This document shows positions 56,285-61,310 of a DNA stretch of 64,000 nucleotides, piece by piece. Within the stretch, counting starts at the first letter, position 1, and each line of letters starts with the position of its first letter. The notes under the pieces were generated by a model. It worked only from the letters and a program-made list of their open reading frames with translations, searched no databases and was not told the DNA's origin. Made by a program: the position numbers and the translations under genes. The DNA lies in contig JANVYR010000002.1 of NCBI GenBank assembly GCA_030059665.1, positions 224,001-288,000 of the forward strand. Direction: 5' to 3'. The stretch is from Candidatus Calditenuis fumarioli (GTDB lineage Archaea > Thermoproteota > Nitrososphaeria_A > Caldarchaeales > Calditenuaceae).

Positions 56285-57084
56285 CGGGCTTGGCCTCCGT
56301 CGGGCCCCTCGTCAGGGCTCGGGTGCTGGGCGCGGTCATCAGGGCGCTGAGGGAGTCCCCGGAGCTCGACCCCTCGAGGATCTCGGAGCTCTCTGGCGTG
56401 GCGCGGGAGGTCGTTAGGGAGCTTCTGGAGGTCTGGAGCGGCGGGACTGGCCGGCTCGACCAGACGAGGGTCATAGAGCTGGCGGCGGAGGCGCTCGAGA
56501 GGTCAGGCGGATCTGTCGAGGTGCTGAGGGCCCTCGGATGGTCGCTCTTCGAGGACCTGATAGGAGCGCTGCTGGAGAGGATGGGGCTCGAAACGCTGAG
56601 GGACGTGAGGGTGAAGGTGGGGAGGAGGTGGTGCCAGATCGACGTGGTGGCGCTGAGGGGAGGCGACGTCTACGCACTGGAGTGCAAGCACTGGATGAGG
56701 AGCGTCACGTCCTCCCTGATGGCCTCGATAGCTTCCTCCCATCTGAGGCGCGTTGAGCTGCTCGAGGAGGGCCTCAGGTCGTCCCTCGGTGAGGGAGACG
56801 TGACCGTCCGGGTGGTTCCGGTGGCGGTGGCGCTGTACGTTCCACCCTCGACCGGCGAGGTCCTCTTCGTCCCGGTCCGCGCGCTGGCGAGCTTCCTCTC
56901 CGAGCACCCCGCAGCTCTCCCTTCTCCCCCCGTCAGGAGGTTGAAGTTAGGCAGGAGGCCCGACGCGTCCACCTTCACAAGGCCTCCGTTCAGGGCATCG
57001 AGGGAAGCGACAAGGCTCGACGCAGGGTTGACGAGGCTCGAGGACCACGCTGCTCAGCAGGGCCCGATGACCTCCAGGAGGTGA
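56281..57084 (+). CDS. Mrr-like PD-(D/E)XK endonuclease domain protein
   Basis: FEDLIGALLE..G, QIDVVA...ALECKHW. Confidence 0.75.
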   Translation: MTGLASVGPLVRARVLGAVIRALRESPELDPSRISELSGVAREVVRELLEVWSGGTGRLDQTRVIELAAEALERSGGSVEVLRALGWSLFEDLIGALLERMGLETLRDVRVKVGRRWCQIDVVALRGGDVYALECKHWMRSVTSSLMASIASSHLRRVELLEEGLRSSLGEGDVTVRVVPVAVALYVPPSTGEVLFVPVRALASFLSEHPAALPSPPVRRLKLGRRPDASTFTRPPFRASREATRLDAGLTRLEDHAAQQGPMTSRR

Positions 57085-57310
57085 CCGAGACCGATCGAGG
57101 GGATCCTCGACCTCCACGCCTCCCACTCGGCCTCGAAGTCGGGTGAGACCCTGGGCCTCCGGACGACGTCGTAGTAGTCGTACGGTTTGATGTCCAGCAC
57201 AGAAGAGCCGGGCCAGGCGTCGAGCCAGAGGACCTCCAGCCTCGGCGGCTCCACCCTCGACAGCTCCACCACGCTCACCGCGATGGGGTTCGGCCTGGGA
57301 GGGTGGCGCG
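57054..57310 (-). pseudogene. trmO: 5'-truncated TrmO/TsaA (tRNA m6t6A37 methyltransferase) fragment
   Basis: RPNPIAVSVVEL...LDAWPGSSVLDIKPY is the C-terminal half of the TsaA domain; similarity stops where the tRNA fragment begins on the opposite strand. Confidence 0.75.
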
Positions 57311-57324
57311 AAGTTGATAGGGAG

Positions 57325-57360
57325 AACCGGAGGTCCCGGGTTCGAGTCCCGGCGGGCCCG
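57325..57360 (+). tRNA. Isolated tRNA 3' half (positions 38-73; Lys/Arg-type acceptor)
   Basis: A-ACCGG-AGGTC-CCGGG-TTCGAGT-CCCGG-CGGGCCC-G is an intact anticodon 3' strand, variable loop, T arm, acceptor strand and G73; no 5' half found in the window. Confidence 0.85.
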
Positions 57361-57409
57361 CGAATATAATAGCTTTCCAATTATGAACGATGATTGGGCC
57401 GTAAGCATG

Positions 57410-57434
57410 AAAACAGAAAAGGAAAGAAAGGGGA
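57410..57434 (-). terminator. U-rich terminator-like tract after the LAGLIDADG ORF
   Basis: Minus strand TCCCCTTTCTTTCCTTTTCTGTTTT just after the stop codon. Confidence 0.5.
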
Positions 57435-57439
57435 GGGGT

Positions 57440-58456
57440 TTACGTCGTCAGCGAGTTATTAGGAAGAAGCCCTCTCCTCTTCAAGTATTCCTCGAGTCTC
57501 TTCCTCTTCCGCTCGATCGTGAAACCGACTTTCTCGTAGAACGTCAGATTTGACTTCATTCTCACGCTGACATAGTAGGCGTCTTTTCTCGCTCTATACA
57601 CTTTATCCGTCTTCTTCGGGTCTCTAAACGGTCTTCCTGCTCGGTGATGTAGTATCGGCTTCTCCGAAGTCGTCTCTATCCCGATCTTTTTCAGCAGATA
57701 TATCACGTACTCCAACATCTTATAGTTGGTGTTAACCACCCCAATTTCACCATCTTTATGAGCATATCCCTCACTGTCAAAGAACCCCCGAAGGAACATT
57801 GCTATACATCTCTCGCAGTGCTCAACGTACGGTCTGATCCTCTCGATGTCTATGGGTTTCTTGAGCAGCTCGTAGAGTGTTCTGGACTGAACTTCGACGA
57901 CCCATAAACTGTATTTATTTTGCCTTGGTATCGGAGGTTCCCTTCCCAGAACCTTAGCTAATCTCCTGCCAAATTCTTCGGCGAATTCCTTGTCCTTGAC
58001 CGTCAATCCGACAAAGAATTTGTCATATCTAGGCGCCGAAATACTCATCTTATAGACAGTACCGTCTCCAACTATTGCGCCAGCGATGTAAGCCAGATCT
58101 TCTGAAGGTTTCAGGAATTCTAATGTCGGTATTCTGATTCCGTTATAGGGAGAGTGTTTCCTATTTTTCCACCCGCTGAGAGTTGACTTGCGGATAGTAA
58201 CGTTATATCTTCTCTTTATCTCCTTGATTATTTTGTTATAGCTCAATCCCTGTTTCCGGAGTTCAAGGAAGTCCTCGTGGATCCTTATCCTCAGTTCTCC
58301 CGGAAGGATAGTTCTTCTGCGCTTCCGTTTCAACTGACTGTGTGCGGAGGCTTCCGCGCTCATGACATCACCCATGTGAATGGCAGAGGCAACGATTTCG
58401 GTTCCCTCAGCATGACGTCTATCCTTCTCAGCGTGTTCTCTATGGCCTTTTCTCAT
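57440..58456 (-). CDS. Free-standing HTH-LAGLIDADG homing endonuclease-like protein (338 aa)
   Basis: HTH (GLSYNKII..IRKSTLSGWK), LAGLIDADG motifs LAYIAGAIVGDG and FLRGFFDSEG; SD-like GGAGGGTGA before ATG 58456; AT-rich codons. Confidence 0.92.
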   Translation of the reverse strand: MRKGHREHAEKDRRHAEGTEIVASAIHMGDVMSAEASAHSQLKRKRRRTILPGELRIRIHEDFLELRKQGLSYNKIIKEIKRRYNVTIRKSTLSGWKNRKHSPYNGIRIPTLEFLKPSEDLAYIAGAIVGDGTVYKMSISAPRYDKFFVGLTVKDKEFAEEFGRRLAKVLGREPPIPRQNKYSLWVVEVQSRTLYELLKKPIDIERIRPYVEHCERCIAMFLRGFFDSEGYAHKDGEIGVVNTNYKMLEYVIYLLKKIGIETTSEKPILHHRAGRPFRDPKKTDKVYRARKDAYYVSVRMKSNLTFYEKVGFTIERKRKRLEEYLKRRGLLPNNSLTT

Positions 58457-58469
58457 ATCATCACCCTCC

Positions 58470-60121
58470 CCCTCTGGCTCTGAGAGACGGGCAGGACGAA
58501 GATCCTGCCCGACCCCTGCATCGGCTGAGTCAGGGCTTACGGCCGGGGCCAGCCGACCCCTTCTCCCGGGGTCCGGGCCGGGATCGGAGGGACCGATCAT
58601 ATCCCTCCCCATGATGTTGGGGAGGCCGGCCTTCTAGGCCGGGACATCCCTCCGACCGGCCCTCCCCGGGGAAGGGTTGCCACAGAGGGGGTGAGGCGCC
58701 GTCCGACGTCAGCCTGATCCGGTGAGGATGGTCAGCTGGTGATCGCGATGGGGGTGAGGGCTTCTCCGCGCCCGACACCCGACCCCTTCCTCACCCGGTG
58801 GCCATCCGGAAGAGGAAGGTACTGGGCGGACGCGCATCGATCCGGTCAGACTCGCCTATCCTCCTGAGCGCCGTCACCCGATGGGAGGGACCCCTGCACG
58901 CCGCGCCCTTCGCCCGGGTATGCCTGTCCCTCCTTTGGACCCGGAGGCCGGCCTTGCCCGGGGATCACCGGATGACGGCGTTCAGGAGGACTTCTGGGAT
59001 CATCGTGTAATCATCAGGTGATCGTCCGGTCCGGGACCTTTGCCGACCCCGTGTATACAAATGTGCACAAATGCATACATCCGTTCCTACCCCCTCTCCC
59101 CCTCCCTTTCGGGAAGAGGTGGGGGTCCTCAGAATGCCCCCTGGGGGTCTCAGAGCACCCCCCGGGGGGCCTCTCCCCTCCCTCCCCCTACCCCTGGTTG
59201 CCCCCTTTGGGACTAGGGCGGGGGATCGGTGAACCCCCAGTACCCCCTCCCTTCGACGGAGGATAGGGGATCCCTGAGGGCCATGAGGGGAGCCCCCTTC
59301 GCGCATGGTGGGGTCTCCTCGACGGGGTTCTCGGCGGTCCCGGTATCCGTGCCCAGAGTTCCCACGGCCCCCCGGACGGGGTTTTGAGACGGCCGTGGTA
59401 CCCCGGGCCATCTACCGGCGGACGGGCTTGGGAACCCTGAAGGGCCATCGCCCCGGGCTTGTCCCCTCATCGCCCGTTCCCCCCTCCATCCGGAGGGGGT
59501 TATGGCGGTTAGCCCTGCCCCCCGGACGGGAGGCGGTGCCCTCACAGCGGACGCTCAGGCCCTCACATCCCCTGCTGGAAGCGCGGGGGATGCGGGACAC
59601 CCGCCGCCGCCGTCTCTACGTCCGGGGCCAGAGGTGCTGGGAGGCCCCGGCGCACCAACCCCTCCCCCAGGATCCCCAGCACCCATGAGTTTGGTGGGTG
59701 CTCCGGGATTTGATCCCGGGGTGAGAGGAATAGTTCTCCCTCGACTCGGCTGACTTCCTCTTCCTCCGCCCTTCGTCTGTCTTCCGGGAGGGCTTAGGGC
59801 GATCGCCCTTCCCGGGGAGCCCCTTCTGCCCCTCCCATCCGGGACTCCCCCGCCGCCCCGGCATCCTGGGGCTACGGGCGGGCTCCCACTTCCCGCCGCT
59901 CCCTTCAGGGAGGCGAGGAGACGCTCTCGTCGTCCCCTCGCCGGGGGCAGCTCCCTTCACCGGAGGAGGTCCAGGGCCGCAACCCCTTTCGGGGCCTCGG
60001 CGCCGCCCCGCCGGCTTTCGTCGGCGGCCCCAACTCCTCCTCCAGCGCCGCCACCTTTCCGTGGCGACCGGGCCCCTCACGTGGCGGGCCTCGGGACCCG
60101 TGAGGAGGACCTTGAACCCTC
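58470..60121 (-). ncRNA. Putative ~1.65-kb highly structured non-coding RNA of unknown class
   Basis: Very GC-rich with only Pro/Gly/Arg junk ORFs; dense stem-loops whose GAAA tetraloops and G.U pairs work only on the minus strand; TATA-like box just upstream; boundaries approximate. Confidence 0.75.
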
Positions 60122-60143
60122 TGTAAAGTGTAGTTCTGTCGAC

Positions 60144-60153
60144 TTTACTTAAG
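60144..60153 (-). promoter_or_regulatory. TATA-like box for the putative large RNA
   Basis: CTTAAGTAAA on minus strand 23-32 nt upstream of the first hairpin (60121). Confidence 0.45.
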
Positions 60154-60176
60154 CATTAGCATTCAACTGGACGTGA

Positions 60177-60547
60177 TAGTGTCCGGATAAGCATCTCTAC
60201 CCACCTCCGTTCCTCATCACATGATAGTAGATCGCGAAGAGGTTTAGGAATTGGTCTCATCGACAGCTATGCACCTCCTATATCTCGGCTCTGAGGCCAC
60301 TGTTACCATAGAAGACACCTTCCTGGCAAGATAATGTACTGTTGATTCGCTTATAGGCTCAATAGCTATGCTGAGTACCTTGGCGACCCTCCTGCAGCTG
60401 CCGTGGAACACGTACTCTAGGACAGCTAAGACCTTGACCTCACGGCTTTTTTGTTGCGCTCGAGACGGCTCGAGATCAGGGCTATGACGTCCACGAAGAC
60501 GACCATCGAAGACAGGCCTTTAAATGTATTCACTTATCCGGACACTA
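60177..60547 (-). mobile_element. Internally deleted IS6-family element (371 bp)
   Basis: Perfect 15-bp terminal inverted repeats TAGTGTCCGGATAAG / CTTATCCGGACACTA; internal frame ...SCRRVAKVL..ISESTVHYLARK...CIAVDET* resembles the IS6 transposase N-terminus up to the first catalytic Asp. Confidence 0.85.
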
Positions 60548-61310
60548 CCGAGATAGTTTAGAAGGCATTGATATACAACCTGTTGCTTAACGCGGCATGA
60601 ACTTAGGAAACTGAGGCACGAGCTGGAGAAGAGGTAATAGAACTAGAGGAATTATGCCACAAGGCATGAGGCTGCAGAGGTTCGTCAAGGATTTCGCTCG
60701 ATCCTGCCGTTTGGGATGCGGCGGGCGCCCGGCTTTGATGGCCCCATGATGGATTGATTCCGAGGAGAATTGGAGACAATATTAACTCAGGCAGGAGAGT
60801 CCTACTACGACGACGTTTACCTCATGGCGAGCACGGACGAGGAGGGATGGGATGAGGGAAGTAAGGGCCCTTGAGGAGAGGGTTTCCGCAGTCACAGGGT
60901 CCACCGGGAATCGCCAGCCACACCCAAAGAGCAGGAAACGGTCGGGTCTAATGACAAATCTTAGAAGTGTTTACCGTGTGGGGAAGGACGAGGGACTTCA
61001 GGACGTGGAAGGCGCAGATGATGGCTTATCTCGTCCGTCAACCGCCCTCAAAGGAGCTGGACTCCCTGATAGACCAGCTTGAGAAGCTCCGTAGCAGGTG
61101 GTTATCGAGTCTTTAGCCGGCATCAGCAAGCATGAGAGCGCATCAGGCATTAAGATTCCACCAGAATTGTTACCATCGCAAGAGTAGGTCGAGGCGTGGT
61201 CTCGGGAGAGGGAGTGAGGGATGTCGTATTAGCAGTTTATTAGGAGCTATGGCGTCGAGGTTTTCAGAATAAACAAGATCAATATCCCGCGCTGAACCCT
61301 ATCCGGCGGC

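Follow-up and report, generated by a model that had tools for sequence, protein, structure and literature searches.

What kind of gene occupies a tract of about 1.65 kb in the archaeon Candidatus Calditenuis fumarioli, and what does its product serve? The tract lies on the minus strand at positions 58470-60125 of the stretch analysed here (64,000 nucleotides of contig JANVYR010000002.1, hereafter the window), and a prediction made from the sequence letters had proposed that it encodes an rRNA-sized structured RNA of a possibly new class. The analysis identifies it as the gene for a large multi-domain structured non-coding RNA, which makes up the 5' two-thirds of a mobile unit of about 2.75 kb (about 57400-60150). 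In this copy the RNA is followed by a gene for a predicted homing endonuclease of the LAGLIDADG type, and in sister copies the same slot holds a quite different protein. Very large structured RNAs without a known function are seldom found, and to our knowledge almost none comes from archaea.

The tract and its coding potential

All hairpins listed in the original prediction are present on the minus strand (60105-60121, 60047-60068, 59982-59995, 59899-59912, 59480-59499, 59103-59114 and 58488-58511). When both strands of 59300-60125 were compared with dinucleotide shuffles, as had been proposed as a check, the minus strand (-489 kcal/mol) gave z = -5.2 and the plus strand z = -3.8. The TATA-like box that had been reported upstream was also found, about 25 nt before the first hairpin, and relatives of type B (defined below) carry strong TATA-like boxes (TTATATAAA, TATTAAAT) at the equivalent relative position. 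One argument of the original prediction, namely that GC enrichment marks the RNA, fails because the genome itself is GC-rich: the tract has 70% GC against a genome norm of 63-66%, a range that the window also shows over most of its length. What is unusual in composition is the pair of AT-rich flanks, which consist of the endonuclease gene on one side and a decayed insertion sequence (IS) on the other.

Only open reading frames (ORFs) of chance length (at most 154 amino acids) occur in the tract, and a Pfam search with these found no family. Antisense ORFs of up to 247 amino acids, found repeatedly in relatives, likewise gave no Pfam family. Both kinds were judged unlikely to be genes on the basis of periodicity, indel and stop tests, which were made on an alignment of the 5' domain of the window copy with 13 type B loci (alignment A2; 14 sequences, 966 columns). 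Variable columns fall on the three codon phases in the numbers 118/124/126 (p = 0.75), 253 of the 293 gap runs are not multiples of three (40 are), and every sequence has stops in all six frames. The earlier statement that the tract holds no credible protein frame is borne out by these results.

The large RNA appears to belong to no recognisable class, as had been suggested, and this is supported by searches of Rfam 15. A scan of the window gave no match at the gathering score, a search of 57000-60800 up to E = 10 gave 11 matches, the best of which are short chance matches at 15-25 bits, and the related loci L002-L008 gave no match. RNase P RNA and signal recognition particle (SRP) RNA with insertions were considered as identities of the tract and rejected, since both genes are located elsewhere in the genome, as is that for the large subunit (LSU) rRNA. 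Full-text literature searches found no publication that describes the large RNA or the exchange of LAGLIDADG and IS110-type genes reported below; the protein superfamily concerned has been described, without this RNA (PMC12045711; bioRxiv 10.1101/2024.06.21.599552).

Relatives of the large RNA

The large RNA is present as a single copy in its own genome (BLAST, and nhmmer with three profiles), and no full-length match was found in 40 related genomes or, subsequently, in all 76 genomes of the class. However, the centre of its most conserved part, a 78-nt stretch at 58887-58964 within the core domain, recurs in multiple copies in two genomes of another genus. The core was found in three of the 76 class genomes; it was not found in six genomes of the same genus (66-90% complete). 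A pattern search for the core matched three contigs of species genomes (named Caldarchaeales and Archaeon HR02) and 67 hot-spring metagenome contigs, with no match in viral contigs.

The core centre is 81-94% identical across 70 loci of four types, which were sorted according to their core-closing stem: type A, which resembles the window copy (8 loci), type B (28), type C (34) and type D (1). This stem is compensatory throughout between types, with CCGUCAUCCGGU/AUCGGGUGACGG in type A, CUCACCAC/GUGGUGAG in type B and UCUAGGUCU/AGGCCUAGA in type C, and the sole hypervariable spot of the core is a loop of 5-7 nt with the form NNNAY. Outside the core, type B loci are 61-65% identical to the 5' domain of the window (about 800 nt) and 70-92% identical among themselves. 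One other type A locus has the central part of the window's 5' domain, and the 3' domain is conserved in type A loci at 78-88% identity. A three-way-junction module of the 3' domain also occurs about 250 nt upstream of genes for RuvC-Nop proteins (described below) in genomes of another family. This occurrence, together with the domains shared by different types, indicates that the large RNA is modular.

Tandem box-C-like repeats adjoin the core in all types, with a period of 9-12 nt and a copy number (3-5 units) that differs between loci; one contig from an RNA library has one extra unit. In another family, the leaders of recombinase-type genes contain similar repeats. The arrangement does not fit an archaeal C/D box small RNA (boxes C, D', C' and D, with guides of about 12 nt), since reading of the sequence at 58980-59015 places UGAUGA and CUGA 25 nt apart, with no second pair of boxes.

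Beyond the RNA, two other loci contain DNA with 73-78% identity to a 117-nt stretch that lies in the window upstream of the IS remnant (60550-60666): in the type A locus L071 this DNA follows just after the right end, and in L014 (Archaeon HR02) it lies 3.5 kb upstream of the core. This stretch may be a recurrent neighbour or a target.

Conservation of the fold

Comparison among these relatives demonstrates that the structure is conserved, that the tract is non-coding and that the minus strand is the sense strand. For alignment A2, RNAalifold gave 202 pairs and a folding energy of -287 kcal/mol, compared with -83 +/- 7 for column shuffles and -240 for the reverse complement, and 42 of the pairs are maintained despite changes on both sides. 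A separate count found 44 compensatory pairs; the corresponding numbers were 3-17 when partners were slid by 1-3 columns, and a mean of 10.5 with a maximum of 17 in 20 column shuffles. Within the consensus pairs, G.U (283) outnumbers A.C (29) by about 10:1, an excess that identifies the minus strand as sense and agrees with the strand originally assigned. Several single-stranded junction sequences are invariant, and the helix that follows an invariant T-loop-like hairpin covaries in nearly every sequence. Relatives therefore keep base pairs through compensatory changes and keep no reading frame; the opposite pattern had been named in the original prediction as a refuting outcome.

Folding is also favoured over shuffles in the 3' domain of type A loci (RNAalifold, -160 vs -73 +/- 5). 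The 5' region of type C loci, which nhmmer does not align with A2, is structured in its own right (-198 vs -26 +/- 4.5; 14 compensatory pairs vs 3.9).

Two tRNA-like candidates within the tract were rejected. A permuted tRNA-like domain with an encoded CCA had been considered at 59678-59742; the ACCA of the window lies in a loop that varies in every relative, and conservation there is limited to the T-loop-like hairpin and the helix. The tRNA-Ser called by ARAGORN at 58574-58662 is a false positive, which has no Rfam tRNA match and corresponds to the three-way junction of the 3' domain.

RNA-library evidence and a probable 290-nt intron

The tract is found nearly identical in DNA runs of many hot-spring studies and partly in two metatranscriptomes. 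Two RNA and two DNA runs, all in the form of contigs and with DNA and RNA from different samples, were compared with the locus. Contigs from the RNA runs cover parts of the large RNA and of the endonuclease gene, and their depth is highest over the core, although contig depth is a poor measure; gaps in this cover carry no weight either way. Of the metatranscriptome cover proposed as a check, this much was obtained, from contigs rather than from raw reads.

In contigs of both metatranscriptomes, which come from different studies, an identical joint connects 59038 with 59329 and removes 290 nt; the exon parts on its two sides measure 77-81 nt and have no mismatches. The DNA run X13 crosses both borders unjoined. 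The borders themselves form, on the minus strand, an 8-bp exon helix (CCGGGACC/GGUCCCGG), a 5-bp central helix (GCCGA/UCGGC; the canonical motif has 4), 3-nt bulges GAA and AAA on opposite strands and a 6-bp intron helix (CCCCGU/ACGGGG), which together constitute an hBHBh'-type motif. Because its borders form this bulge-helix-bulge motif, the insert is probably an archaeal intron inside the large RNA, probably spliced by the host tRNA splicing endonuclease. Transcription of the large RNA and the splice joint are both probable on the strength of these RNA-library contigs. The mature molecule is probably shorter than originally proposed, at about 1.36 kb, since 290 nt are apparently spliced out.

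Type B relatives have neither the insert nor the small hairpin that is left after its removal. The predicted hairpin at 59103-59114 lies within the intron. With the intron alone as query, the runs listed were DNA runs from 11 studies and no RNA run, a result that weighs neither way. Also within the intron, window positions 59120-59173 hold 2.5 copies of a 21-nt unit that reads on the minus strand as GGGGGUGUUCUGAGGACCCCCA-like hairpins; the long G runs of this segment could form G-quadruplexes.

A mobile unit with an exchangeable enzyme

Directly downstream of the RNA, on the same strand, lies an intact gene whose product is predicted to be a helix-turn-helix (HTH)-LAGLIDADG homing endonuclease. 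It matches PF14528 (LAGLIDADG_3; E = 1.1e-17) in two stretches, and both motifs are readable (LAYIAGAIVGDG and FLRGFFDSEG), with the ends ...GDG and ...DSEG that contain the acidic residues. In nearly all loci a plus-sense ORF begins 250-760 nt after the core. LAGLIDADG homologues take this position, 355-650 nt after the core, in 24 loci of types A and B, while in type C, in type D and in the type A locus L071 the slot holds a protein of 280-340 amino acids instead.

In this second protein, residues D, E, D and D are invariant, and its match to the NCBIfam IS110 family is marginal (E = 6e-4, far below the cut-off). Its AlphaFold model (predicted local distance difference test, pLDDT, 83) was used for a fold search, in which the best match was TasR (9mty, E = 2.7e-9) and the bridge recombinases IS621 and ISCro4 also matched (8wt6, 8wt9, 9t56; range E = 3e-9 to 4e-6). 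A PDB profile search with the alignment of the protein gave no match, so that the link to TasR and IS621 comes from the fold search only. By this model, the protein of the sister copies matches a RuvC-coiled-coil-Nop architecture like that of IS110 and TasR proteins (RuvC-Nop in the following).

Locus L071 shows the exchange most directly, in that a core and 3' domain like those of the window are followed by a RuvC-Nop gene, a hairpin RNA of about 200 nt and the right-end motif of the window. In the window this motif comes directly after the stop codon of the endonuclease gene. Units with RuvC-Nop genes (type C, type D and L071) terminate in this motif as well, and type B units in a variant of it. 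The layouts of L071 and the window, together with their common right end, indicate that the endonuclease gene fills the slot of the recombinase and the small downstream RNA. Type B units contain the LAGLIDADG gene only and no recombinase, and at 70-92% identity they still show compensatory base pairing.

The units behave as discrete mobile segments. Similarity between loci of the same type stops at common left and right points, with unrelated genes beyond, and similarity between the window and L075 stops after the right-end motif. Units of about 2.3-3 kb are found in many genomic contexts, with 1.2-1.9 kb of non-coding sequence in the relatives, and insertions are intergenic where the flanks are readable. 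In a genome of the same genus (G002) the two flanks of the island that contains the window copy lie 345 bp apart with trmO intact, which corresponds to an empty site; similarity to the window stops at 57304, and the island replaces the 5' half of trmO. The mobile context and the swap of enzymes on a common chassis thus differ from the stand-alone, rRNA-like gene of the original prediction: the RNA is the backbone of a mobile element, sporadic, sometimes multi-copy in related genomes and missing at the matching site of a same-genus genome.

Downstream of the LAGLIDADG genes in L020, L032, L034, L044 and L075, a convergent tRNA gene lies within about 10-200 nt (Pro-GGG, Arg-CCT, Arg-CCG, Pro-CGG and others); the window has a tRNA half (57305-57360). 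The conserved 3' end of tRNAs could be the target of the endonuclease. Elsewhere on the same contig, the genome has a second LAGLIDADG homologue (G000:C2:56805-57656), which shares 46% identity with the L033 protein of type B; nhmmer found no large RNA beside it.

Four RuvC-Nop genes (IS110/TasR-like) lie in the genome away from this locus. Two of these (G000:C1:627188-628400 and G000:C2:492168-493500) begin a few hundred bases after a sequence like a tRNA 5' half (GGGCCCGUAGCUCAGC...), which breaks off in the anticodon region, and these two smaller elements appear to lie inside tRNA genes. A conserved AT-rich leader (GAAAGCC.GUGAAAGGGUUGCUGAAAGGCAA) is common to two of the four genes.

Layout of the unit and its island

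From 5' to 3', the unit consists of a promoter-like box, the 5' domain, the box-C-like repeats, the core, the 3' domain, the mobility gene and a T-rich right end; the parts found in the window are listed in Table 1. The Shine-Dalgarno-like sequence before the endonuclease gene suggests that the protein may be translated from inside a longer transcript, and the T-rich right end is possibly also a terminator.

Table 1. Parts of the mobile unit and of the surrounding island, in window positions.
Feature	Position	Strand	Basis
TATA-like box TTAAGTAAA, candidate archaeal promoter	60143..60151	-	Read from sequence; promoter activity inferred
RNA exon 1, multi-branched 5' domain of about 800 nt	59329..60125	-	Alignment A2 and RNAalifold
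T-loop-like invariant hairpin, then covarying 7-9-bp helix	59678-59742	-	Alignment A2
G-rich 290-nt intron (probable), bulge-helix-bulge borders	59039..59328	-	Joint in RNA-library contigs and fold of borders
Tandem box-C-like repeats GACGAUC / UGAUGAU / CGAUGAUC, just 5' of core	58998..59026	-	Sequence comparison
Conserved core domain, about 108 nt, most conserved part of family	58871..58978	-	70 loci
RNA 3' domain	58470..58870	-	Conserved in type A loci, RNAalifold
Three-way junction of 3' domain	58574-58662	-	Miscalled tRNA-Ser by ARAGORN
Terminal hairpin of 3' domain	58488-58511	-	Sequence
Shine-Dalgarno-like GGAGGGUGA, 4 nt before endonuclease ATG	58461..58469	-	Read from sequence
Predicted HTH-LAGLIDADG homing endonuclease gene, 338 amino acids from ATG at 58456	57440..58456	-	Pfam LAGLIDADG_3
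Conserved C-/T-rich right end ACCCCTCCCCTTTCTTTCC ... TTCATGCTTAC	57400..57439	-	Motif common to sister units
Orphan tRNA 3' half, tail to tail with unit, left edge of island	57305..57360	+	Weak tRNA-like Rfam match
Decayed IS6-like element with 15-bp inverted repeats; separate insertion, not RNA	60175..60548	.	Read from sequence
Composite island holding all parts, 4.0 kb	57305..61310	.	Comparison with G002

At the left edge of the island (window 56947-57360), the truncated trmO/tsaA gene adjoins the orphan tRNA half. Several tRNA genes of the genome match this half at 95-100% identity over the T arm and acceptor. The damage looks like collateral of the arrival of the island rather than a split tRNA gene. 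At the other end of the unit, about 25 nt upstream of the TATA-like box, the IS6-like remnant has inverted repeats (TAGTGTCCGGATAAG) around a broken frame that ends in ...IAVDET; a fuller copy is present in L062, and a relative of 101 nt on contig C3 of the genome.

Two stable RNA genes elsewhere in the genome also deserve mention. The LSU rRNA match (G000:C2:363427-367108) spans 3,682 nt against a model of 2,987 positions, a difference which indicates about 700 nt of inserted sequence in the 23S gene. In an Aigarchaeota genome, a group I intron has been reported at position 1923 of the LSU rRNA (PMC6125680). The SRP RNA (G000:C2:369741-370062) scores 81.6 bits against an Rfam gathering score of 96.5 in an end-to-end match to the model, and the molecule is divergent in this lineage.

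Role of the RNA

On balance, we favour the reading that the RNA is the constant non-coding chassis of a mobile unit of hot-spring Caldarchaeales, which it would serve as a ribonucleoprotein (RNP) scaffold or as an expression leader. This is held with moderate confidence, which rests mostly on the identity of the RNA and not on its function. The RNA would be transcribed from its own TATA-like promoter, probably as one transcription unit with the downstream mobility gene and its Shine-Dalgarno site, and the host splicing endonuclease would remove the intron. It would then act for the element itself, needed whichever enzyme the chassis carries and not as the guide of the recombinase, with the tandem box-C-like repeats and the core as the most likely protein-binding part. 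Promoter, co-transcription and function are what we infer here. A more ambitious version, in which we have distinctly less confidence and which we put forward tentatively, takes the RNA itself to be what is essential and selected in a novel kind of archaeal mobile element, whose enzyme would be interchangeable (RNA-guided RuvC-Nop recombinase or LAGLIDADG homing endonuclease). The RNA would represent a new class of more than 1 kb, catalytic or acting as RNP scaffold, required for spread or persistence, and the first with a bulge-helix-bulge intron; the scaffold might recruit L7Ae or Nop-type proteins via the box-C-like repeats.

Several observations weigh against the favoured reading. The function is deduced from conservation and architecture only, with no binding partner, catalytic motif or target identified. 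Covariation in the 3' domain of the window is weak (13 compensatory pairs vs 9.1 in shuffles, five sequences), and the compensatory counts come from related sequences and are thus not independent events. The RNA cover consists of contigs only, and the joint could in principle be an intron-less DNA allele in those two communities. The RNA is also single-copy in its genome and sits in a damaged island (truncated trmO, orphan tRNA half, IS beside the promoter), so that the window copy might be inactive.

Two other proposals take their starting point from the partner genes. The large RNA might be an oversized guide or bridge-type RNA of RuvC-Nop recombinases that pairs with the ends or the target of the element, in which case the window copy would either have become a relic or act in trans with the four recombinase-like genes of the genome, whose presence suits this proposal. 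As with IS110 bridge RNAs, the place of the large RNA is the non-coding end beside the slot of the recombinase; the sister-copy protein has the fold of TasR and IS621, recombinase genes of another family are likewise preceded by the three-way junction of the 3' domain, and the UGAUGA/UGACGA box-C-like repeats that flank the core recall the box C/D-like motifs bound by Nop domains (PMC12045711). However, the RNA is 6-10 times as long as a bridge RNA, recombinase-type units already have a separate small hairpin RNA downstream of the gene, and the NNNAY loop of the core is too short and too regular for a guide. In an inspection limited to the core and the ends, no convincing complementarity was seen. 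Because type B units keep the RNA structure over a long divergence without a recombinase gene, the RNA would serve the element (or its selector) independently of the recombinase, and this independence makes a guide or bridge role unlikely; we give it little credence. Still more doubtful is an intron-like nature, as a group I intron with a LAGLIDADG maturase or an IStron, in which the RNA and the gene would be spliced out of host transcripts and insertions made harmless. A 5' folded RNA with a 3' mobility gene is indeed the layout of an IStron, large intron RNAs classically have LAGLIDADG proteins as partners, archaeal rRNA genes, including those of an Aigarchaeota genome (PMC6125680), are known to contain group I introns with LAGLIDADG genes, and host splicing machinery probably acts on this RNA. 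Against this, group I and group II models (including RF00028) are unmatched up to E = 10, insertions are intergenic where flanks are readable, promoter-like boxes apparently belong to the unit itself, the ORF is not followed by a conserved RNA domain, and the RNA contigs, whose cover is thin, show no joint of the whole unit.

The remaining proposals differ in the beneficiary of the RNA, or deny it a function. It could be a passenger with a cellular, defence-related or anti-defence function of its own, comparable with GOLLD and ROOL on phages, beside which selfish genes (homing endonuclease, recombinase) have repeatedly settled and which they move. This would fit a large, ornate and conserved structure with invariant junction sequences, retained whichever mobility gene is present and apparently equipped with its own promoter, as well as the endonuclease-type copies that often lie tail to tail with tRNA genes, like free-standing homing cassettes by conserved targets. 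We nevertheless consider it rather unlikely, given that the sporadic occurrence of the core argues against a need of the host and that the RNA and the right end always form one unit with discrete ends; the proposal overlaps the chassis reading and differs from it mainly in who benefits. Finally, the tract might be non-functional GC-rich filler or a decayed gene, with hairpins as a by-product of composition, as the GC-rich genome, the damaged island and the better-than-shuffled fold of the plus strand (z = -3.8) might suggest. This is close to refuted by compensatory changes far above controls with structure conserved at 61-65% identity, by the strong strand asymmetry of the G.U-to-A.C ratio, by the precise joint in RNA-library contigs and by the lack of a reading frame and of three-base periodicity.

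Several points make the RNA of wider interest. Dozens of natural variants of the large RNA are available, enough for structure modelling, cryo-EM and chemical probing, and origin in hot springs usually means a stable fold. The RNA-guided IS110 and TIGR-Tas systems, to which the element family is related, are under development for genome writing. That the RNA backbone is kept even though an RNA-guided enzyme has been swapped for a protein-only homing endonuclease raises the question of what the element selects for. A bulge-helix-bulge intron in the RNA of a mobile element would, if true, widen the substrates of the splicing endonuclease beyond tRNA, rRNA and a few mRNAs.

Comparison with known systems

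Among large structured RNAs, GOLLD and ROOL, and also OLE and HEARO (the omega RNA of IscB), are similar in that they exceed 0.5 kb and are multi-branched and supported by covariation. GOLLD and ROOL are further alike in their location on mobile DNA and near tRNA genes and in a function that is not evident from sequence. In contrast to all four, the large RNA does not match their Rfam models, is archaeal rather than bacterial or phage-borne, is about twice as long, and has a bulge-helix-bulge intron within an insertion-sequence-like unit whose mobility gene is exchangeable.

Mobile LAGLIDADG introns (the bulge-helix-bulge introns of archaeal rRNA, and group I introns) and IStrons likewise combine a folded RNA with a LAGLIDADG or transposase gene in one unit, and the archaeal splicing endonuclease probably acts on the transcript here as well. 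However, the present unit does not lie inside an rRNA, tRNA or protein gene and has no group I or group II core, and its bulge-helix-bulge motif bounds an internal insert of 290 nt, not the whole unit.

The closest systems are IS110/IS1111 elements, with their bridge or seek RNAs (IS621, ISCro4), and TIGR-Tas (TasR). The sister copies share with these a RuvC-coiled-coil-Nop protein by model and a structured RNA in their non-coding parts, and the chassis units have discrete ends in many contexts. The sequence similarity of the sister-copy protein to IS110 is marginal, and the link to IS110 and TIGR-Tas is only via that protein. A TIGR-like array was considered and rejected, as the only repeats given by Tandem Repeats Finder are one of 21 nt and 2.5 copies within the intron and one of 12 nt within the IS remnant. 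The box-C-like repeats, at 3-5 units, are without fixed-length spacers, whereas a TIGR array is long and alternates repeats of 8-12 nt with 9-nt spacers. Unlike both systems, the window copy carries a LAGLIDADG gene instead of a RuvC-Nop gene, and the RNA is adjacent to a recombinase only in types C and D and in L071. The RNA measures 1.2-1.9 kb, compared with 0.15-0.25 kb for bridge RNA and 36 nt for tigRNA, and it lies upstream of the gene and persists in units without a recombinase.

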